Notes: generated from the letters alone by a model not told the origin. A stretch of 64,000 bases of DNA from Minisyncoccia bacterium (GCA_049317285.1 JBMOIO010000001.1:20388-84387), one strand, 5' to 3'. Shown: positions 3,939 to 61,903, numbered from the stretch's first letter. Program-made: numbers and translations.

Positions 3939-4505
3939 CTAATTAAATGCTGTCATTATCTCCTCTTTACTCTTGTGTGGAAGGGATTCAATAACCGCGA
4001 TCGCACGCGCTATCCCCTCTTTAAGTGTTTCTTTTTCAAATGGTGCAAAGTTTGAGAGTAAGAATTTTTGAAATCCGTCGGGAGGCAAGATACGGTCTGC
4101 GAGCTCCTCATGGATTGGGCGCACGCCAACACGGATGCGGAAAAAGTCCTTGTGTCCAAGGTGGTCGATAATGCTCTGCACGCCATTGTGTCCACCTGCA
4201 CCCCGCCCAAACGAACACTTTATGTTCCCAAGCGAAATATCGATGTCGTCATACACCACCACCACCTGTGCGTCGGGGTATTGCTTCAAAAGCGCGCGCG
4301 CCGTAACCCCTGAGTGGTTCATAAAGGTTGTCGGCTTTGCAAGCAACAATTCACCCCACTGTGCAATGCTTGCGCTAAAAAGTCCTTTCTCAACAAAAAC
4401 AAAAGATTCCTTTTCCGCAACTGCATCAAGCACTTGGAAGCCAACATTGTGCCGCTGTTTTATATACGTACTTCCAGGATTGCCGAGCCCAATAACGATG
4501 ATCAT
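3939..4505 (-). CDS. pth: peptidyl-tRNA hydrolase
   Basis: MIIVIGLGNPGSTYIKQRHNVGFQVLD...HNGVQSII; start set at internal Met (complement cat 4503-4505), not the ORF-track start at 4604. Confidence 0.9.
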   Translation of the reverse strand: MIIVIGLGNPGSTYIKQRHNVGFQVLDAVAEKESFVFVEKGLFSASIAQWGELLLAKPTTFMNHSGVTARALLKQYPDAQVVVVYDDIDISLGNIKCSFGRGAGGHNGVQSIIDHLGHKDFFRIRVGVRPIHEELADRILPPDGFQKFLLSNFAPFEKETLKEGIARAIAVIESLPHKSKEEIMTAFN

Positions 4506-10053: not shown

Positions 10054-10116
10054 TTTATCAGATGATAAAAATACTGTGCTCCCCCGGTAGGATTCGAACC
10101 TACGACCAATTGCTTA

Positions 10117-10673
10117 CATTTATTCTCGCATTACTGCGGGCATGGACTATATCATCACCCGTTTCCATATTCATGGAAGTGTGGGTGCGAAGCGCTTCCG
10201 CCGACATCTGTCGGAGTACTCCACAAGGGATAGTCTCTGAACCTTCCCTTCAATTTCTTTCAGGGCTTGGCTGCTGATTGCCCTCATGAGTGAGGGGTTC
10301 CAGTCAATTCACTTCGTTATTCGACCCGTCTTTCGATCGGGAAGCTGCGTAATACCGTCGTGGATTTCCATATGACAGTTCGCACACAAGAGAATACATT
10401 TCTCTATTTCCATTTTAATCCTTTCCCAAGAACGGGTAAGTCCTTTGTCAGAGACACCGAAACTTTTCTGTTCTGGGTCAAGATGGTGAAATGAAAGTGC
10501 GCGACCGCATTTGTTATATCCACAAATCTCACATCGTCCGCCCTTATATTCGCGTGCCATAACACGAAGTTTGATTCTTCGTTTCTTTACGGCTTCGCGC
10601 ATATAGGCAGCTCGATCGGCATAGGTACGGGTTTCTGGCATACTCAATATAGTATACCATCGACTACCTTTCC
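10117..10673 (-). mobile_element. group I intron (self-splicing, homing-endonuclease-bearing) inside tRNA-Asn
   Basis: Contains the conserved P7 elements: R-like GGTTCAGAGACTA (compare Tetrahymena GUUCACAGACUA) and S-like GATATAGTCC (compare AAGAUAUAGUC). Terminal G immediately before exon2. Encodes an HNH ORF. Confidence 0.75.
10309..10647 (-). CDS. HNH homing endonuclease (intron-encoded)
   Basis: 112 aa; CEICGYNKCGRALSFHHLDPEQK...CANCHMEIH = HNH motif with flanking Cys pairs; lies wholly inside the tRNA-Asn intron. Confidence 0.8.
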   Translation of the reverse strand: MSMPETRTYADRAAYMREAVKKRRIKLRVMAREYKGGRCEICGYNKCGRALSFHHLDPEQKSFGVSDKGLTRSWERIKMEIEKCILLCANCHMEIHDGITQLPDRKTGRITK

Positions 10674-54993: not shown

Positions 54994-55518
54994 TTATCTT
55001 CCTAGAGGCAGAATGCATGATACATACGACGACGTTACGGAATTCGTTAAACCAGGTCCGCACATTCCCGACCTGTACGGCAGTTCCAAAATCCAATGAA
55101 GTACCGGACCAGGCCCCGGGAGAGTGACGCCATCGTAAACAGTACTTGGCCCTGTTGAAGGGTGATACAAATATCCGCCGTATCCGCGTCCTCCGGGCGG
55201 ATCTACAGGTAGTGTTGGCATAGCTGTTTGAAGAAATGAATTGACCGTTGAATTTCTAGTGTACCCAGCCCATCCTTCATAACAAGTCGCACTCACACAA
55301 GCCCATCCCCCGGTACTCCCAGTAGTGTCCGGATATACCCCTGTATCGCCCGCCGCCAATGCAAACGCATTTTGAAGCTCTCGTACATCTGCATTGCGCC
55401 GTGCATTGCGTGCTTTCACTCGAGCGCTATTTAAGCTTGCCATAACTACTGATGCCAAAATGCCGATGACTGCAATCACGACGAGAAGTTCTATTAAAGT
55501 GAAGCCTCGGTTTTTCAT
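54994..55518 (-). CDS. type IV pilin-like protein (paralogue 1 of tandem pair)
   Basis: MKNRGFTLIELLVVIAVIGILASVVMASLNSARVKARNARR prepilin leader and methylation motif. Confidence 0.75.
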   Translation of the reverse strand: MKNRGFTLIELLVVIAVIGILASVVMASLNSARVKARNARRNADVRELQNAFALAAGDTGVYPDTTGSTGGWACVSATCYEGWAGYTRNSTVNSFLQTAMPTLPVDPPGGRGYGGYLYHPSTGPSTVYDGVTLPGPGPVLHWILELPYRSGMCGPGLTNSVTSSYVSCILPLGR

Positions 55519-55536
55519 TACTTTAGTATACCCCAC

Positions 55537-56058
55537 TTATGGATTGACCTGCAGCATGCACGACGCATGGGTGCCACTTACACCGAAACTCAAGATTCCT
55601 CCCGGCGCACAAGAACTTTCAGTTGCAGGCATTTCAACATTCCAATAGATATATGCTCCCGCAGGAAACGTCAGTCCATTATACCGAACACTTCCTGCCC
55701 ATGCATCGTAATACAAATACCCCCCATATCCGCGATTTCCTCCTGTTGGATCTGATGGTTTTGTCGGAAGGTATGGTGCTAAATAATTATCCACAGCACT
55801 AACAGCTACTTGTCCGCTCCAGCCGTCATAACAGGTGGCACTGACACATGCCCATACCCCGCCCGTGCTCGGGAGAGAACCTGATCCATCAAGACCTAAC
55901 TGAAATGCATTAAGAAGCTGTTTAACATCACTTGTGCGCCGTGCATTGCGCGCTTTTACACGAGCACTGTTCAGTGAGGCCATTACGACACTTGCAAGAA
56001 TACCGATGACAGCAATAACGACGAGGAGTTCTATGAGGGTGAAGCCGCGGTTTTTCAT
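55537..56058 (-). CDS. type IV pilin-like protein (paralogue 2 of tandem pair)
   Basis: Identical 41-aa N-terminus MKNRGFTLIELLVVIAVIGILASVVMASLNSARVKARNARR; divergent C-terminal domains, both with a conserved Cys pair. Confidence 0.75.
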   Translation of the reverse strand: MKNRGFTLIELLVVIAVIGILASVVMASLNSARVKARNARRTSDVKQLLNAFQLGLDGSGSLPSTGGVWACVSATCYDGWSGQVAVSAVDNYLAPYLPTKPSDPTGGNRGYGGYLYYDAWAGSVRYNGLTFPAGAYIYWNVEMPATESSCAPGGILSFGVSGTHASCMLQVNP

Positions 56059-56150
56059 TGAAGTAGTATAACAAATTTGCGGAGGCAGTTTTAGCTTTGT
56101 CGCGAGAGACGTCATTTTTTGCACTAAGTACATAACAGCAAAGCAGGTAA

Positions 56151-56525
56151 CTATTCTATTCTATATTTTGCTGTCTTTTTTGCTATGCGTTTTGGCTGTT
56201 TAACCCACTGATGACCTTCTTTTGTTCCTATTTGTTTCGCACGATTTGTTGCTCTTTTTTCCTCAACAGTTAGATGCTCACGTGCCTTTTTTGGTAAATA
56301 CCGGCTTTGTTTTGGTTTTCCTGTATACCCCCAATCCTCTTTTGTCCATTTTACTAAACTATTTTGTTGTGACTTTACTCCACTGTATCCACCCCCACGG
56401 TCTTTGTATAGCTTTACCGCATATTGCATAGCACGGGCAGAAAATTTACCCATCTTTTCCACCGCTTCAGTTTTACAATATTCCCACAGTGGTTCGTTGT
56501 CTCTTTTTGCGGATGTTTTTTCCAT
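56151..56525 (-). CDS. basic hypothetical protein (DUF5872-like)
   Basis: KTEAVEKMGKFSARAMQYAVKLYKDRGGGYSG...; low-GC region. Confidence 0.45.
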   Translation of the reverse strand: MEKTSAKRDNEPLWEYCKTEAVEKMGKFSARAMQYAVKLYKDRGGGYSGVKSQQNSLVKWTKEDWGYTGKPKQSRYLPKKAREHLTVEEKRATNRAKQIGTKEGHQWVKQPKRIAKKTAKYRIE

Positions 56526-56535
56526 GGGTTAAAAA

Positions 56536-56940
56536 CTAGATAACAACATGTACTATATATAAAATAACAAGAGCCATTGTGAGCATTCCTATCGCAGGGA
56601 GTATCTTTACTAGAGGATCTTTTATTTTTATATGCATTGTTATCGCGCCGAGCATAAGAACTGATAGTAGCATAAGTGCTGGTACCCCAAGTAGTGGCAT
56701 TAATTGCTGTATAAACAAAGCAAGAAACAGTATTATAGCGATGACGATTTTTAAAAAACCAACAACGTACATGAACCATGACGGTAGTCCATATACAGAA
56801 AATTCTTCTTTCATAGTATGTGCCCCTGCACCACGATATTTTGTCGCACGGCCAAACCTAAAAATCCATACATTGATTAACCCACTAGCAATCACAACCT
56901 GCAAAATAGGCACTGTCCAAATTATTACTATTTCTGACAT
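56536..56940 (-). CDS. DoxX-family membrane protein
   Basis: Four TM helices; DoxX-like layout; low GC. Confidence 0.55.
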   Translation of the reverse strand: MSEIVIIWTVPILQVVIASGLINVWIFRFGRATKYRGAGAHTMKEEFSVYGLPSWFMYVVGFLKIVIAIILFLALFIQQLMPLLGVPALMLLSVLMLGAITMHIKIKDPLVKILPAIGMLTMALVILYIVHVVI

Positions 56941-57176
56941 AATTAAAAAATTAAAAGCTTATAAAAAACTTGTCTTAATGGTACCATTTTAGCGATCAAA
57001 TCCCCATCACTTAATTTTTATGGGTGGTGATTTATAGTCGGTAATTTGTAATGGAAGAATCTCACGTCATCGTATAGTTCTTGTATTTGCGGAGGTGGGT
57101 TTATAGTCGCTGAGCATTTATATGAGCGCATGCGGAGGCATTATATAGTCGCTTTCGCTCCTTATAATGCACTGCG

Positions 57177-57406
57177 CAAAATATGGTCGCACTTCGTGCT
57201 CCCTATTTTGCGGTATTCATTGTACAAAATTCGAACCTTTTTTGAAAGCAATCCTGATGAGGAGTGATGCACGCCTCGTCCGCTCCCTTCGGTCGCGGGA
57301 GCAAAAACCAAAAATTTTCCTTACCTTTCTTTTAGATTTTCGGCGGGGGGTGTGGGGGGAGCCGACAAAAAATGGAAAGGAAATTTTTGGTTTTGCTTCG
57401 CCGTTT
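57177..57406 (+). repeat. 228-bp inverted repeat, copy A
   Basis: Near-identical (one 1-nt indel) to the reverse complement of 60676-60902. Confidence 0.85.
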
Positions 57407-57676
57407 CAGACTACAAAATGAACATTTGTATTATATCATTTGTGGTTCTTTGGAGTTGTTCATTTCTCCGTCCTCACGGCGATACGAGGCGCTTCCTCTC
57501 GGCGTTCTGTGGTATCTCTAAACTCTGTGACTTCGACCGAGTTCGGTGGTAACTCAAAGAATATGGATTGTGCACAGCACAAACAAATCTGTATGTGCTT
57601 GCCCCGCCCACCCTGTGCGTGCACACAAATCCCCACCGTTTTTAGGAGATATTATAAAACGGCGGGGATTGCTCCC

Positions 57677-58666
57677 TTAAACCTCAAATTCCTTATCAGT
57701 TTCTGCAAGATGTGTTTTCAATTCGTTAAGTCCCGCATCTAAAGCATCAATATAAACTTCTAGTTCGTAATTTTCAAATTTTCGAGTATTTTTAAATGTT
57801 TCAATTTTAGAAAACACAAAATCTAATTTTTTGATCACTTCGTGAGTTCCTGGAATTCTTATGGCTTCGCCAAATTTACCAAAACGGTCTTCCAATCCCT
57901 TTCTAATCTTTTTATATAATTCATGGTAATGATCGAAGCTCGGCCACGCTAAATGGTCATTCCACTGGAAACCGTAAATAAGATTTACTTGATATAGAGA
58001 TGGCTTATTTAGAAGCTCACCGAGCTTCTCACCCTTAAATTTTGTTTTATGTTGTTTTTCTTCTTTTTGTAATTCTTTCATAACAGTTTCAAGCTCAACC
58101 CCAAGATATTTATCCTGCAATTCAATAATTTCTGAAAACTTGATTGTTCTACTTTCTGTTTTTGTGTGCATGTATAGCATGTAGCGGAAGCCGTCTTTTG
58201 TTAAAGACGAGCGATCAATCATACAAGAAGTAACCTCGTCATTAGCATAAGTTGATTTTCTACCTTTTCTTTCTGTCTTAACAGGATGCCCGATAGTTTC
58301 GTTTCTTACCTGTCTGATTTTTGCCAATTCAGCATATTTTGCATTACCCCAATCAATTTTCTTATCATTACCAAACAAAGATATTTTCAAATAATTGACG
58401 GCATCTTGTTGAGTAAAAAGAGCTTGCAAGATTCCATAAGTTGCCAGATATGGATTTTTTATGAACAAATCATTCGGGTCTTGTTGAAAATTTTGGATAG
58501 CCAAACAAGTATCCCCAATAGTATCCAACGCCGCGCAAAACTGATTCCAATCACCATTCTTTTTCTTTAAAAAGACATTCGTCTTTTTAATAGTGGACAC
58601 GTTAAAAAAATTCCTGATTTGATTGCTCGTCTCTTCTATTTTAAGCTTTTTGTCTTCTTCGGCCAT
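57677..58666 (-). CDS. hypothetical cytoplasmic protein (island cargo)
   Basis: 329 aa, Lys/Glu-rich, no family recognised; flanked by ~31-bp direct repeats containing TATAAT. Confidence 0.55.
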   Translation of the reverse strand: MAEEDKKLKIEETSNQIRNFFNVSTIKKTNVFLKKKNGDWNQFCAALDTIGDTCLAIQNFQQDPNDLFIKNPYLATYGILQALFTQQDAVNYLKISLFGNDKKIDWGNAKYAELAKIRQVRNETIGHPVKTERKGRKSTYANDEVTSCMIDRSSLTKDGFRYMLYMHTKTESRTIKFSEIIELQDKYLGVELETVMKELQKEEKQHKTKFKGEKLGELLNKPSLYQVNLIYGFQWNDHLAWPSFDHYHELYKKIRKGLEDRFGKFGEAIRIPGTHEVIKKLDFVFSKIETFKNTRKFENYELEVYIDALDAGLNELKTHLAETDKEFEV

Positions 58667-58704
58667 GATTTGGTAAATATTATAAAACGGCGTGGATTGC
58701 TCTC

Positions 58705-59859
58705 TTAAGAAGTTACCACGTTTAATTTTCTAGTATCTAAAAACCAGAAGTAAATAAATATGATTCCGACAGACAAGAATATAAGCGGTAAATAATTATG
58801 AAGAAGTATTGCTATAGAAAATAATATTAGTCTACCGAGTACCGTTGGTATTTCACGCAATACCAAGAATTGGGCATCGTCTTTGCGCGCTTGATTGTAC
58901 ATAAGTGAACTGTAAGGTACAAGAAAAACCTTTAATGACAATGTGGCAAAAATGGTAGCTATATAAAATAAATATTGATTAGGGAAAAATTCTCCAATAG
59001 CAAAATTGATAAACCACACAATGCTTACAAGAAACGCACCTATTTTTATTAGTTTATGTTTGTTCCATTGGTCAGTTAATTTTCCTAAAGTTAGCGTAAA
59101 AAATAATGATGCAACTGATGTAATTGTTCCTATGATTCCTACTTCTAAAGTGCTTGCGAGCTGTAAAAAGATAAAAATTGTCCATAGCGCCATAGCATCT
59201 TCAGCCAAGTTATCTATAATTTCTGGTACAAAATACTGCTTGTTTTTTTGCCAAATTTCTTTAAATTTTTCTTTTGAAAAAATAAAGTTTGTTTTTTCTG
59301 ACTTCAATGACAATATCGGTAGAAAAGTAAAAAATAATAAAAACATCGCAAATGCAAATAAAATATTAAATCCGTAATGTATAGCAATAAATGCCCCCAC
59401 AAGAGGCCCTGCCATAGACAAAGCTTTTGGGACAACAAAAAATTTACTCATAGATTTCCCCATGTTTTCTTCTTTGGTATTTCGAACAAAAAGAATGTTG
59501 AGGGGTATCCAGTAGAATGCAGATTCTGCACCAGAGATAATAGGGATTATATAAAAGAGCATTGGCATATCTTTCAGTCCAAACAAAAGAAGTAAAAAAT
59601 ACGTGAGCAGTAGTCCGAATCTTACATGTAGAGAATGTACTAATCCTATTTTGTTCGATACTTTAACTGTGACAAAAGCAAACAAAAGTAGGGTGGCATG
59701 ATGTATCATCATCCATATCATCACCATTTGAAAAGAGTACCCTAAGTTAAAAAGATAAATAGGAATGAATATTGCTACAAAAGACATTGCAAATCCATTC
59801 AGACTCATCATTCCTAGTACTTTATTAAAACCATTACCTGTGATGTCTTTGTTCTCCAT
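58705..59859 (-). CDS. MFS-type transporter (10-12 TM helices)
   Basis: Hydrophobicity pattern and length typical of the major facilitator superfamily; very AT-rich. Confidence 0.65.
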   Translation of the reverse strand: MENKDITGNGFNKVLGMMSLNGFAMSFVAIFIPIYLFNLGYSFQMVMIWMMIHHATLLLFAFVTVKVSNKIGLVHSLHVRFGLLLTYFLLLLFGLKDMPMLFYIIPIISGAESAFYWIPLNILFVRNTKEENMGKSMSKFFVVPKALSMAGPLVGAFIAIHYGFNILFAFAMFLLFFTFLPILSLKSEKTNFIFSKEKFKEIWQKNKQYFVPEIIDNLAEDAMALWTIFIFLQLASTLEVGIIGTITSVASLFFTLTLGKLTDQWNKHKLIKIGAFLVSIVWFINFAIGEFFPNQYLFYIATIFATLSLKVFLVPYSSLMYNQARKDDAQFLVLREIPTVLGRLILFSIAILLHNYLPLIFLSVGIIFIYFWFLDTRKLNVVTS

Positions 59860-59863
59860 ATAT

Positions 59864-60403
59864 TTAAATATTTTCTATATATCTTATCAACCGATCATAT
59901 TCCTCGGCGTGCGGTACCAACATAGATTTTTCATCTTTAGTTATTAACTTAAATTCTTCAAATTCAATCCACTTTAATTCCGAAACTTCCTCATCAGAAT
60001 GCATTTGAGAAAGTTCAATATCCATATGAACTACATATACATCTTGAAACTCATTGTTTACATATGTCCCTTTATTCAAAATAATATTTTCTTTGAGGGT
60101 GCATAAGAATATAAAAGCCTCATCAGGTAGAGACAATCCGAGTTCTTCTTTTGTTTCCATCTGAGCCCCTTCCAAGCTCGTCTGACCTGCAGAGATGTGA
60201 CCAGCAGCGGAAATATCCCAATAATCAGGGTAAGCTAGTTTATTACTAGCCCTTTTTTGAAGCAGTATTTGTTTTTTTGAATTCACAAACCAAACATGAG
60301 CTGTTCGGTGAATAAAACCCTCTCGATGAACCTCATCGTAAGATTTAGACTCACCAGTTTTTTCACCTTTCTTATTTAATATGTCGAGATATTCGTCCGC
60401 CAT
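59864..60403 (-). CDS. NUDIX hydrolase (isopentenyl-diphosphate isomerase-like)
   Basis: HRTAHVWFVN...YWDISAAGHISAGQTSLEGAQMETKEELGL; start at MADEYL (cat 60401-60403). Confidence 0.7.
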   Translation of the reverse strand: MADEYLDILNKKGEKTGESKSYDEVHREGFIHRTAHVWFVNSKKQILLQKRASNKLAYPDYWDISAAGHISAGQTSLEGAQMETKEELGLSLPDEAFIFLCTLKENIILNKGTYVNNEFQDVYVVHMDIELSQMHSDEEVSELKWIEFEEFKLITKDEKSMLVPHAEEYDRLIRYIENI

Positions 60404-60407
60404 ATAT

Positions 60408-60614
60408 TTATTTGAGCAATTCATTAACCGAAACCCCGACCGCTTTCGCCAATTTTGCAATTGTCGCAAGTGTTGGATTCGTTTTTCCGTTTTCTATTGT
60501 ACTAATAAAACCGCGACTTACTTCCAGTTCGCGAGCAATATCTCCCTGCGAAATACCTTTCTTGGTTCTGATCCTTTTCAAGTTCAGACCCAATTTTGCA
60601 GATTCGTTTATCAT
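60408..60614 (-). CDS. XRE-family HTH transcriptional regulator (68 aa)
   Basis: MINESAKLGLNLKRIRTKKGISQGDIARELEVSRGFISTIENGKTNPTLATIAKLAKAVGVSVNELLK; the ORF-track N-terminal extension runs through the repeat and the tRNA and is rejected. Confidence 0.65.
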   Translation of the reverse strand: MINESAKLGLNLKRIRTKKGISQGDIARELEVSRGFISTIENGKTNPTLATIAKLAKAVGVSVNELLK

Positions 60615-60675
60615 TATCCACAGTATATCGCATTGGTATAGTATATCACAATGATATGATATAATGTAACTATGA

Positions 60676-60902
60676 CGGCGAAGCAAAACCAAAAATTTCC
60701 TTTCCATTTTTTGTCGGCTCCCCCACACCCCCCGCCGAAAATCTAAAAGAAAGGTAAGGAAAATTTTTGGTTTTTGCTCCCGCGACCGAAGGGAGCGGAC
60801 GAGGCGTGCATCACTCCTCATCAGGATTGCTTTCAAAAAAGGTTCGAATTTTGTACAATGAATACCGCAAAATAGGGAGCACGAAGTGCGACCATATTTT
60901 GC
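60676..60902 (-). repeat. 228-bp inverted repeat, copy B (begins at the first nucleotide after the tRNA-Ser 3' end)
   Basis: Reverse complement matches 57177-57406. Confidence 0.85.
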
Positions 60903-60988
60903 GGAGGATGGGAGATTCGAACTCCCGAGGGCATTACTACCCTGCCACGTTTCCAACATGGTGCACTAGACCGCTATGCGAATCCTCC
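60903..60988 (-). tRNA. tRNA-Ser(GGA), long variable arm, CCA not encoded
   Basis: Minus strand GGAGGAT TC GCAT...CCATG TTGGAAA CGTGG C AGGG tagtaatg CCCT C GGGAG TTCGAAT CTCCC ATCCTCC; acceptor 7 bp, T arm canonical, anticodon GGA. Confidence 0.8.
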
Positions 60989-61006
60989 AAGCAACTAAAC
61001 TTACCA

Positions 61007-61903
61007 CTACTGAGCCATTTCGTGCAAGCGGGCGATGCGCTTCTCGGCTGGTGGGTGCGTCATAAACAAATGCGCAATACCGCTTGCCGCCTTTCCTCCA
61101 AAGGGATTACTAATGTACATGTGGGCCGTCGCATTTGTTGCGTTTGCCATTGGTCGACCATAGCTTGAGATTTTTGCAAGCGCATTCGCCAAACCCTCAG
61201 GATAGCGGGTAAGGAGTGCACCAGTTGCGTCCGCCAAGTATTCACGCTTTCGGGAAATCGCGAGCTGTATCATAACTGCAATAATCGGCGAGAGGATAAC
61301 AAAAATAATGCCGATAATCGCAATAATATTATTTCCTTTATTATCATTGTCACTGTGCATCCCACCAAAAAGCAAACTCCTTGAAACCATATCCGCAATG
61401 ATAGAAATAAAGCCGACAAGCACTGCGACCATGCTTTGGAGCAAAATATCTTTGTTACCAATATGTGCAAGCTCGTGCGCAATCACGCCTTCAAGCTCGT
61501 TGCGCTCGAGTAGTGCAAGCAAGCCTTCGGTTACTGCAACTGACGCATGTTTTGCGTTGCGCCCCGTAGCAAATGCATTCGGGGCAGGGTCCGGAATAAT
61601 ATACACTCCTGGCTTTGGAAGTCCGGCGGTGATAGAGAGGTTTTCAACAATGCGATGAAGCTCAGCATACTGCTCTACTCGGGCCGGCACAGCATGTGCA
61701 AGGCGAAGCGCTATCTTGTCGGAGAACCAATAGCTTGTGATATTCATCACGACCGCAAAGACAATCGCTATAGTCACAATCCCTGGGTTGTTATAGTACG
61801 CTGACAGGAAATACCCGATAGCGAGCACAACCGCCACAAAGACTCCGACAAGGAGCCATGTTTTTGTAACATTTTCAGCTTTGTGCGTATAAATTGTGGC
61901 CAT
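61007..61903 (-). CDS. htpX: zinc metalloprotease HtpX (M48)
   Basis: HELAHIGNKD (HExxH) and four TM helices. Confidence 0.85.
   Translation of the reverse strand: MATIYTHKAENVTKTWLLVGVFVAVVLAIGYFLSAYYNNPGIVTIAIVFAVVMNITSYWFSDKIALRLAHAVPARVEQYAELHRIVENLSITAGLPKPGVYIIPDPAPNAFATGRNAKHASVAVTEGLLALLERNELEGVIAHELAHIGNKDILLQSMVAVLVGFISIIADMVSRSLLFGGMHSDNDNKGNNIIAIIGIIFVILSPIIAVMIQLAISRKREYLADATGALLTRYPEGLANALAKISSYGRPMANATNATAHMYISNPFGGKAASGIAHLFMTHPPAEKRIARLHEMAQ

Follow-up and report, generated by a model that had tools for sequence, protein, structure and literature searches.

The window, the whole stretch of 64,000 nt analysed here, comes from a Minisyncoccia bacterium (GCA_049317285.1, JBMOIO010000001.1:20388-84387), and its genes for HtpX, LemA, SecDF and type IV pilins place it in the Patescibacteria/Paceibacteria. 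It contains a tRNA-Ser(GGA) gene (60901/60902-60988, minus strand; ARAGORN, Rfam tRNA 48.8 bits) beside which a four-gene island lies between the two copies of a long inverted repeat. The 3.7-kb segment from the tRNA gene to the native hairpin downstream of it is likely to be what remains, as a cargo module, of a serine-integrase element that targets tRNA genes and no longer has its recombinase module. Local alignment pairs copy A (57172-57404, plus strand) with copy B (60906-60675, minus strand) over 232/233 nt, with one mismatch (57174, G versus C) and one 1-nt indel in a run of G; a repeat search of the window returned an ungapped version of the same pair. In the 64 kb a 28-nt probe taken from the repeat has exactly two occurrences, where shuffled sequences give an expectation of 0, and no extension was found beyond the inner end (GCTTCGCCGT) or into the outer flanks. 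The end coordinates of the tRNA gene put the start of the repeat at the tRNA 3' end, with 2-4 nt in common. The GC content is 0.29-0.37 between the copies (30-35% in the genes) against 0.44-0.50 outside. An inverted repeat flanking low-GC genes, with one copy beginning at the tRNA-Ser 3' end, was what the initial annotation had reported, and both points are borne out.

All genes between copies A and B are on the minus strand, and gene calls and profile searches reproduce the cargo list of the initial annotation. The first gene encodes an XRE or C-protein-like helix-turn-helix (HTH) regulator (60408-60623; Pfam HTH_3, 1.5e-16; PADLOC 'control protein'; given earlier as 68 aa). It is followed by an IDI-related NUDIX hydrolase (59864-60403; Pfam NUDIX, 5.4e-13; NCBIfam IDI models match below their cut-offs; called as 179 aa in an independently assembled contig), an MFS transporter (58705-59859; Pfam MFS_1, 1.3e-15) and a 329-aa protein of a Patescibacteria-centred family with 78 homologue clusters (57677-58666). 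None of the four proteins matches a recombinase model in Pfam, PADLOC or NCBIfam, and tblastn finds no homologue of the large serine recombinase (LSR) described below anywhere in the 64-kb window, in agreement with the earlier statement that no recombinase lies within or beside the segment.

The repeat is seen in a second, independent assembly. The Logan assembly of SRR30676221 breaks exactly at the repeat edges (contigs are referred to by L numbers; here L001 and L002): L001 consists of the unique segment with 30 nt of repeat at each end, and L002 stops 27 nt inside the repeat. Breaks at these limits indicate a genuine two-copy inverted repeat and not the artefact of a single assembler. A chimera, in which a foreign low-GC fragment was joined through the repeat, would account for the GC contrast, and short-read assemblers do break at this repeat; but synteny with the closest relative found (L003, DASWWS010000001; HtpX 96% identical at the amino acid level) holds across both outer flanks, the graph topology of L001 and L002 requires the repeat at both ends of the unique segment, and the same architecture recurs in dozens of independent assemblies, among them contigs of 389 kb. 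A chimeric origin is therefore barely credible.

The relative L003 provides the empty tRNA-Ser site that the initial annotation had proposed to look for. Its tRNA-Ser gene, 100% identical to that of the window, is followed by a hairpin of ~38 nt (H1), a second hairpin (H2) and pilin genes, without the island. L003 11552-11640 aligns to window 57213-57131 at 86.5%, and window ~57214-60896 is absent, which marks this part of the window as an insertion with respect to L003. Many island-free relatives also have H1 after tRNA-Ser, with compensatory changes in its stem. In the window, a core CG and the native H1 (57175-57210, minus strand) lie beside copy A in the ancestral orientation and abut the ancestral flank, and the tRNA-side copy, H1' (60868-60901, minus strand), matches the reverse complement of this native 34-nt hairpin exactly. 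The outermost 34 nt of the repeat thus arose locally, by inverted duplication of a hairpin that belongs to the host. H1 and H1' can be split into attB and attP halves that form perfect palindromes, but this works for any inverted duplicate, and the L003 hairpin shares the asymmetry of the flank-side copy.

The rest of the repeat belongs to a conserved non-coding module of ~515 nt, W, whose full copy in the window spans 57211-57676 (plus strand). Copy A is the first ~233 nt of the full W and copy B is a truncated W; the parts conserved in the family are 57211-57404 (plus strand; alignment and nhmmer) and 60675-60867 (minus strand), the latter starting with GCGGTATTCATTGTACAAAATTCGAAC and having GCTTCGCCGT as its inner end. 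The module came into view through L083, a contig reached by way of a homologue of the 329-aa protein, in which a contiguous non-coding stretch of ~480 nt is 77% identical to window 57681-57198 (minus strand). The match covers copy A together with 57405-57676, which is 'unique' within the window, and its hairpins carry compensatory changes. This non-repeated part of the full W (Y, 57405-57676, minus strand) also has nhmmer matches across the family and contains covarying helices. W ends in a terminator-like hairpin (AATCCCCACCGTTTT ... AAAACGGCGGGGATT; 57628-57670, not assigned to a strand) that forms the boundary between cargo and W and is kept with compensatory changes in 34 family members. 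The open reading frame (ORF)-like stretches in W were rejected as coding, the indels in the alignment not being multiples of three. W has no match in phage and plasmid collections, and viral contigs scanned with patterns derived from the repeat gave 0 matches.

The family was sampled with one exact 20-mer from the inner end of the repeat in one metagenome collection, which yielded at least 120 contigs, many of them short; what is said below on mechanism rests on comparison of these sequences. Members have a shared layout: truncated W, small XRE gene, one to six variable cargo genes, terminator hairpin, and full W in inverted orientation. With W as query, nhmmer finds the truncated copy (model positions ~35 to 235-265) inverted with respect to the full copy (~35-515) and separated from it by 1.2-5.7 kb, and it links the window to the family with E-values down to 1e-110. 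The XRE HTH protein (65-90 aa) adjoins the truncated arm in 27 of the 31 loci analysed, and homologues of the window XRE occupy this position in 18 other paired loci (30-94% identity, BLASTP). Other cargo is unrelated between elements and includes restriction enzymes of the HaeIII and TdeIII types, C5 and EcoRI-type methylases, an HMA domain with a P-type ATPase, D-Ala-D-Ala ligase (Ddl), aminotransferase, carbamoyltransferase, methyltransferases, pilins and DUF2157. Within this family the window copy is degraded, as detailed below.

Within a contig, 16 of the 19 arm pairs of at least 90 nt are at least 97% identical, whereas W is 70-85% identical between contigs; this combination points to concerted evolution of the arms by gene conversion. 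The inner end of the truncated arm, GCTTCGCC(GT...), is near-constant in four other resolved pairs (L144, L096, L191 and L101), and the pair of truncated and full arms is therefore probably ancestral to the family. Where the initial annotation offered 'recent duplication or gene conversion' for the identity of the two copies, the second part is supported by the concerted arms and the first is not. No target-site duplication flanks the arms in the five fully resolved elements: L144, L096 and L101 have no direct duplication beside the arms, and the flanking duplication in the window and in L191 is inverted. Long terminal inverted repeats (TIRs) around passenger genes, with no transposase inside, would suit a non-autonomous transposon mobilised by a DDE enzyme, such as a mobile insertion cassette or a miniature inverted-repeat transposable element with passengers, but the lack of target-site duplications, the insertion at tRNA 3' ends with a matching core and the linkage to a serine recombinase make this very improbable.

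That recombinase was found in the flanks. Pfam censuses were made of 73 cargo proteins and of 135 proteins within 4 kb outside W, with the 25 most frequent families listed for each; at the top of the flanking list are Resolvase (6), Recombinase (5) and Zn_ribbon_recom (5). The flanking recombinases form one cluster of LSRs of ~510-580 aa. Their domain architecture (Resolvase, Recombinase, Zn-ribbon) was confirmed on four proteins, one of them gives a PHROG 'integrase' match (2.9e-81), and identity to TP901-1-type integrases is 24-27%. The LSR or fragments of it were detected by tblastn in ~30 loci, where it adjoins W or the tRNA gene in a constant geometry; many other contigs are too short to include it. 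An integron gene cassette would be expected to carry an attC site in direct orientation per cassette and to depend on the tyrosine integrase IntI. That assignment was rejected: the arms are inverted and the linked enzyme is a serine recombinase, and IntI is not among the 25 most frequent families listed for either census.

Complete members have the order tRNA, core, LSR, core (after V, ~120-150 nt), truncated W, XRE, cargo, inverted full W, core, host flank. Among the target tRNAs are Ser-GCT, Ser-TGA, Ser-GGA, Lys-TTT, Leu-TAA, Leu-GAG, Val-TAC, Arg-CCT and Gln-CTG. The LSR and tRNA genes converge, with an overlap of 27-38 nt between the LSR ORF and the tRNA 3' end. In L144 (4649-4678), L177 (2965-3002), L098 (2425-2459), L150 (1938-1973) and L209 (3126-3152) antisense sequence of the tRNA 3' end supplies the last ~10 codons of the LSR, and with an end encoded by the tRNA the C-terminus of the integrase would differ between the integrated and excised states. 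V is an inverted repeat of 112-147 nt, 96-100% identical, which brackets the LSR in all eight canonical loci tested; it duplicates the LSR 3' end, so that the LSR gene is itself enclosed by an inverted repeat. Neither the LSR gene nor V is present between the tRNA gene and the truncated arm in the window, where the 34-nt hairpin stands alone.

Comparison of the junctions defines the core. Reading out of the LSR 3' end (V), one crosses the core and enters either antisense tRNA sequence, as at an integrated junction, or the start of W. L144 reads ..CAATTT-TGGCGG-AGACGG into the tRNA and ..CAATTT-TGGCGG-TGTGTATT into W; L177 reads ..CTGTTT-TGGTG-CCCCG (tRNA-Lys) and ..CTGTTT-TGGTG-TATTTA (W); L118 reads ..TGTTTT-GTGC-CCGGAC and ..TGTTTT-GTGC-AGAAATAC. 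The sequence common to the tRNA 3' end and the W start is 8-9 bp long (TTTTGGCGG for tRNA-Ser, TTTTGGTG for tRNAs ending in CACCA) and covaries with the type of tRNA (Ser, Lys, Leu, Val, Arg). By these junctions, the core is made up of the CCA/discriminator/acceptor end of whichever tRNA is targeted, and the opening bases of W covary with it. Past the core W carries TTCGAA roughly where the antisense T-loop falls in the tRNA, which suggests that the first ~30 nt of W mimic the antisense tRNA, the half-site of the element imitating that of the tRNA. We infer that in each W arm the element contributes its own half of an att site, in which case V|W would be an attP-like junction, and V|tRNA and host-flank|W would be hybrid junctions.

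The window retains the cargo module, both arms and both junction types without LSR or V. Both of its arms read ..TATTTTG-CGG-TATTCATTGTACAAAATTCGAAC, and the antisense tRNA reads ..TATTTTG-CGG-AGGATGGG; the last bases of the tRNA, CCG (60904-60902), would be the recombination core on the evidence of the junctions. A direct repeat of ~10 nt, CCGCAAAATA, is present at both junctions: 60904-60895 at the tRNA end and 57213-57204 where W meets H1, in both cases on the minus strand. The right junction (minus strand) runs ..GAATA-CCG-(CAAAATAGGGAGCAC GAA GTGCGACCATATTTTG)-CG-CAGTGC.. into the native flank. This is an attR-type junction, and its order of W, core and native tRNA-downstream sequence is exactly that predicted for integration at the tRNA-proximal core. 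The left junction (minus strand) runs tRNA..CCTC-CG-(CAAAATATGGTCGCAC TTC GTGCTCCCTATTTTG)-CGG-TATTC.. into the truncated W and has the inverted hairpin in place of the LSR and V module; H1' is bracketed there by inverted cores, CCG (60904-60902) and CGG (60867-60865). An empty site in a close relative, a core shared in direct orientation, a W start beside the tRNA-end core and the order truncated W, XRE, cargo, inverted full W are all found at this locus, while an integrase, which relatives encode, is missing from the island. The earlier suggestion of a tRNA-targeted element without a recombinase of its own gains support from the empty site, from a family that carries an LSR and from the core that matches the tRNA end.

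The odd repeat of the window can then be explained as that of a scar-bearing remnant of a W/LSR element. The LSR would recombine at the core common to the tRNA 3' end and the W start, and gene conversion would keep the inverted W arms identical. In the window element the LSR module would have been deleted, and repair of the break would have used the other arm as template, copying from it outward across H1 as far as the next CG, with microhomology between CTGCG and CTCCG; such copying would yield H1' and lengthen the repeat to 233 nt. The island would now be immobile, or be excised or inverted by an LSR encoded elsewhere in the genome. Its arms could still recombine homologously, flipping the segment with XRE and cargo, and XRE would act as a C-protein-like controller of cargo expression.

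Several points weigh against this account. The att sites are deduced from comparisons of junctions and the activity of the LSR is predicted. The recombinase search covered the 64-kb window, and mobilisation in trans is hypothetical. The inverted duplication of H1 would require a non-conservative repair, which is deduced in turn, and a duplication of the H1 type recurs in L191, which may point to a systematic mechanism. Serine integrases normally need sites of ~50 bp, and the model leaves the conservation of ~230-515 nt of W unexplained. Canonical members keep an internal attP-like site (V, core, truncated W), and we know of no characterized LSR element that does.

The combination of tRNA, palindrome, core and W without LSR is also present in L191, L208, L158 and L132. 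A V'/V palindrome separates two head-to-head W copies in L187; since it is made of V sequence, it represents a collapsed LSR module. Head-to-head W copies around a perfect palindrome with inverted cores were observed in L141 (36-540), L187 (110-859), L175 (~3990-4330) and L122. LSR elements also occupy the same HtpX-linked tRNA-Ser(GGA) gene in L030 and L045, and L068 has an LSR remnant there.

The modules of these elements are found in both orientations. At the same HtpX/tRNA-Ser(GGA) locus in L132 the full W lies beside the tRNA gene and a different XRE-led cargo converges on it; the window has the truncated W in that position, the opposite arrangement. The full arm is beside the LSR in L118 and L185 and the truncated arm in L144, L177 and L200, and the LSR module of L165 is inverted relative to that of L144. 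These differences fit either flipping or integration through one or other of two inverted att sites. A programmed inversion, in line with the invertible segment that the initial annotation had offered as an alternative, with the arms allowing XRE and cargo to be flipped by the LSR acting as an invertase or by RecA, would set either XRE and cargo or Y downstream of the tRNA-Ser promoter as an on/off switch, and it is compatible with an origin from a serine-integrase element. The two orientations of cargo and of the LSR module among relatives would follow from it, arms 97-100% identical within genomes would reflect ongoing recombination, and the tip of the long hairpin in the repeat is inverted in some members. 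The orientation differences were, however, seen between species, where integration through either inverted att site would serve equally well, and the Logan contigs break at the repeat; the promoter- and operator-like region of XRE lies inside the unique segment, so that an outside promoter is not required; and neither tblastn nor protein profile searches find an invertase gene inside or beside the window segment. A programmed switch is plausible but somewhat unlikely.

The arms may have a further use as a platform for exchange, in which inverted W arms with att cores let cargo swap between elements, either by site-specific recombination at two sites, as a natural counterpart of recombinase-mediated cassette exchange (RMCE), or by homologous recombination in the arms after DNA uptake. 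Diverse cargo in a constant frame would be explained in this way. Wholly different cargo is found between similar arms, even at one locus (window versus L132), 40-nt blocks of the arms are identical across lineages, the inner boundary of the truncated arm is near-constant in the four pairs named above, and single cargo genes are bracketed by extra W terminal elements in the window, L175 and L204. The case is purely comparative, with no donor-recipient pair identified, and ordinary indels could turn cargo over, and we regard such exchange as distinctly unlikely. The extra terminal copies, in direct orientation, lie at 57641-57680/58669-58708 in the window, 2680-2768/4590-4680 in L175 and 12121-12359/13481-13537 in L204; their arrangement suggests gene-by-gene accretion at the cargo/W boundary.

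W folds into conserved helices with compensatory changes. In two helices of Y, reading the opposite strand turns C.A or A.C mismatches of the W strand into G.U pairs, in seven sequences against one; further helices, predicted on the cargo-operon strand alone (opposite to W), are rich in G.U. The strand complementary to the repeat folds at z = -4.5, and a TATAAT is conserved within the W terminal element. From the covariation of the helices, the G.U asymmetry and the TATAAT, a structured RNA of ~470 nt is possible on the minus strand, from ~57645 to the hairpin at 57175. The initial annotation had proposed a small RNA co-transcribed with the tRNA; this is not supported as stated, the strand evidence favouring the opposite strand of copy A.

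If the full arm encoded such a cargo-strand RNA, its 3' half would be complementary to the 5' leader of the truncated arm, and the repeat might persist as a means of controlling the cargo operon or LSR expression by an antisense or RNase III-type mechanism. The features just described would all suit this role. On the other side, covariation contributes little (-1 to -2.4 kcal/mol), neither strand is favoured by the terminal hairpin, DNA hairpins would give similar compensatory changes, and the repeat matches no known small RNA family: an Rfam search of 56800-61100 returned chance-level miRNA-like matches (E >= 0.65) and nothing at the gathering score. Maintenance of the repeat for an RNA role is therefore rather unlikely. 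A CUGAUGA in the repeat was inspected as part of a hammerhead ribozyme and rejected: it is buried in a stem and lacks a following GAAA, and Rfam gives no match. The apical ~35 nt of the long hairpin of the repeat (CGGCGGGGGGTGTGGGGGGAGCCG; window 57332-57366 and 60713-60746) are inverted in L083, L178, L191, L201 and L128; with the same strand read, their tips are C-rich in the family alignment, and the change amounts to a small inversion between arms of 28 nt.

The LSRs have the same domain architecture as the recombinases of serine-integrase elements and prophages (TP901-1, phiC31, Bxb1, A118, SCCmec Ccr, Tn4451 TnpX), and in both groups the integrase gene lies at one end of the element beside att, with a short core common to host and element. 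The W/LSR family differs in that it targets tRNA 3' ends, a class of site for which serine integrases are not known (PMC7192596), and in that the LSR ORF runs across the crossover point. Further differences are the internal inverted attP-like site, the long near-identical inverted repeats that bracket the LSR (112-147 nt) and the cargo (230-280 nt), the conserved non-coding module of ~500 nt and the frequency of LSR-less derivatives. Islander-type islands, which use a tyrosine integrase, share insertion at tRNA 3' ends, deviant GC content, accessory cargo and the empty site; the W/LSR islands have no tyrosine integrase, end in inverted repeats and possess the ~10-nt CCGCAAAATA in place of a long direct repeat that restores the tRNA. 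Like integrase-less satellites and cassettes mobilised in trans (integrative mobile elements exploiting XerCD, IMEX, mobile insertion cassettes and degraded islands), the window element has sites and cargo and no recombinase, but its sites match those of the LSR family and not Xer/dif or IS ends, and there is no target-site duplication.

A unique segment between identical inverted repeats also recalls the Gin, Hin and Cin systems and 2-micron FLP, the more so as complete relatives have an adjacent serine recombinase and both orientations occur among relatives; the sites of those flip-flop systems are 26-34 bp long, compared with repeats of 230-280 nt here, the enzyme is of the large integrase type and inversion is hypothetical. 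As in restriction-modification cassettes controlled by C proteins, an XRE regulator that PADLOC calls a 'control protein' leads the operon, and several members do carry restriction-modification genes. Unlike in those cassettes, the regulator leads unrelated cargo (transporters, NUDIX, metal ATPase, cell-wall enzymes).

Mobile elements of the Patescibacteria (Candidate Phyla Radiation) are poorly known. The W/LSR islands are apparently a large and undescribed family among them, full-text literature searches having found no description and PMC12455944 containing nothing relevant; this apparently widespread family carries genes for restriction-modification, transport, metal resistance and cell-wall synthesis into tiny genomes. 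An att core that tracks the tRNA 3' end provides a natural series of integrases with predictable, differing specificities, which is of practical interest for genome engineering, and the double inverted-repeat layout may serve as natural cassette exchange or inversion. A bolder proposal, which we regard as speculative and rather improbable, is that of a new class of serine-integrase mobile element with a core co-evolving with the CCA/acceptor ends of many different tRNAs, two inverted attP-type sites and control of directionality by an RNA or by the LSR C-terminus, the window element being serviced in trans. If so, the two attP-type sites would separate LSR from cargo on the circle formed by excision, a layout like that of the 2-micron plasmid; the element could then integrate in both orientations, invert or exchange cassettes naturally, and the ~470-nt RNA across the att core, or the alternative LSR C-terminus, would replace a protein recombination directionality factor.

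Profile searches against Pfam, PADLOC, NCBIfam, PHROG and PDB give no match for the 329-aa protein of the island. Residues R118, R121, G126, H127 and P128 are invariant in its family and N122 is nearly so (RNETIGHP); the motif resembles the Rx4-6H motif of HEPN RNases, a likeness that we take as a lead only. Homologues elsewhere have variable, defence-like contexts. The homologue in L087 lies beside restriction-modification systems and genes with RelA/SpoT and RhuM domains, and those of L161, L163, L191 and L200 are paired with a conserved 196-aa protein. The protein may be a defence or abortive-infection effector. Directly upstream of its gene is an extra half-copy of the W terminal element (58669-58708, minus strand; repeat search), 88% identical to 57641-57680 and promoter-like (TTAAGA-18-TATAAT; promoter scan), with matches in L083, L144 and L053; by virtue of this half-copy the 329-aa gene is bracketed by direct repeats.

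Outside copy A, hairpin H2 and three units of the form 'GCGACTATAWA..CCTCCGCA' occupy 57020-57171 (minus strand), each unit ending in a copy of the tRNA-Ser 3' end. The CCTCCGCA copies were considered as attL or attR of the island and rejected, as they occur in relatives without it. One to three units of hairpin, GCGACYATAW.. and tRNA 3'-end copy (CCTCYGCAAA) lie past tRNA-Ser in L003 (11596-11645), L012, L016, L020, L011 and L074, and the tRNA-end copy covaries with the tRNA end of each lineage whether the island is present or not. Similar hairpins (CGATTTATAAGGAGCGAAGCGACTATATAAATCG) are scattered in L053 and L074. Units of the H2 type predate the island and may be old att-like scars or a separate family of small repeats.

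A DoxX-like gene and a 124-aa ORF with a GC content of 35-39% lie between the scars and the pilin genes (56151-56940); they are absent from L003 and form a second variable segment at the same hotspot. At 54994-56133 (minus strand) there are two tandem paralogous type IV pilin genes, with a 181-nt direct repeat, 73% identical, whose copies are 540 nt apart. L003 holds one of these pilin genes between HtpX and tRNA-Ser, which indicates local rearrangement around the tRNA gene.

Two features lie elsewhere in the window. The 16S rRNA match at 31885-33563 (minus strand) is 1679 nt long against 1533 nt for the model, an insertion of ~150 nt. Insertions in 16S rRNA genes are common in the Candidate Phyla Radiation. 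At 10085-10440 (minus strand) an Rfam group I intron (10124-10415) comes after an HNH-like ORF (..CILLCANCHMEIHDG..) and runs directly into the 3' half of a tRNA (GGTCGTAGGTTCGAATCCTACCGGGGGAGCA). ARAGORN missed this tRNA gene, which is split by the intron in a way described for Patescibacteria (PMC13011429).

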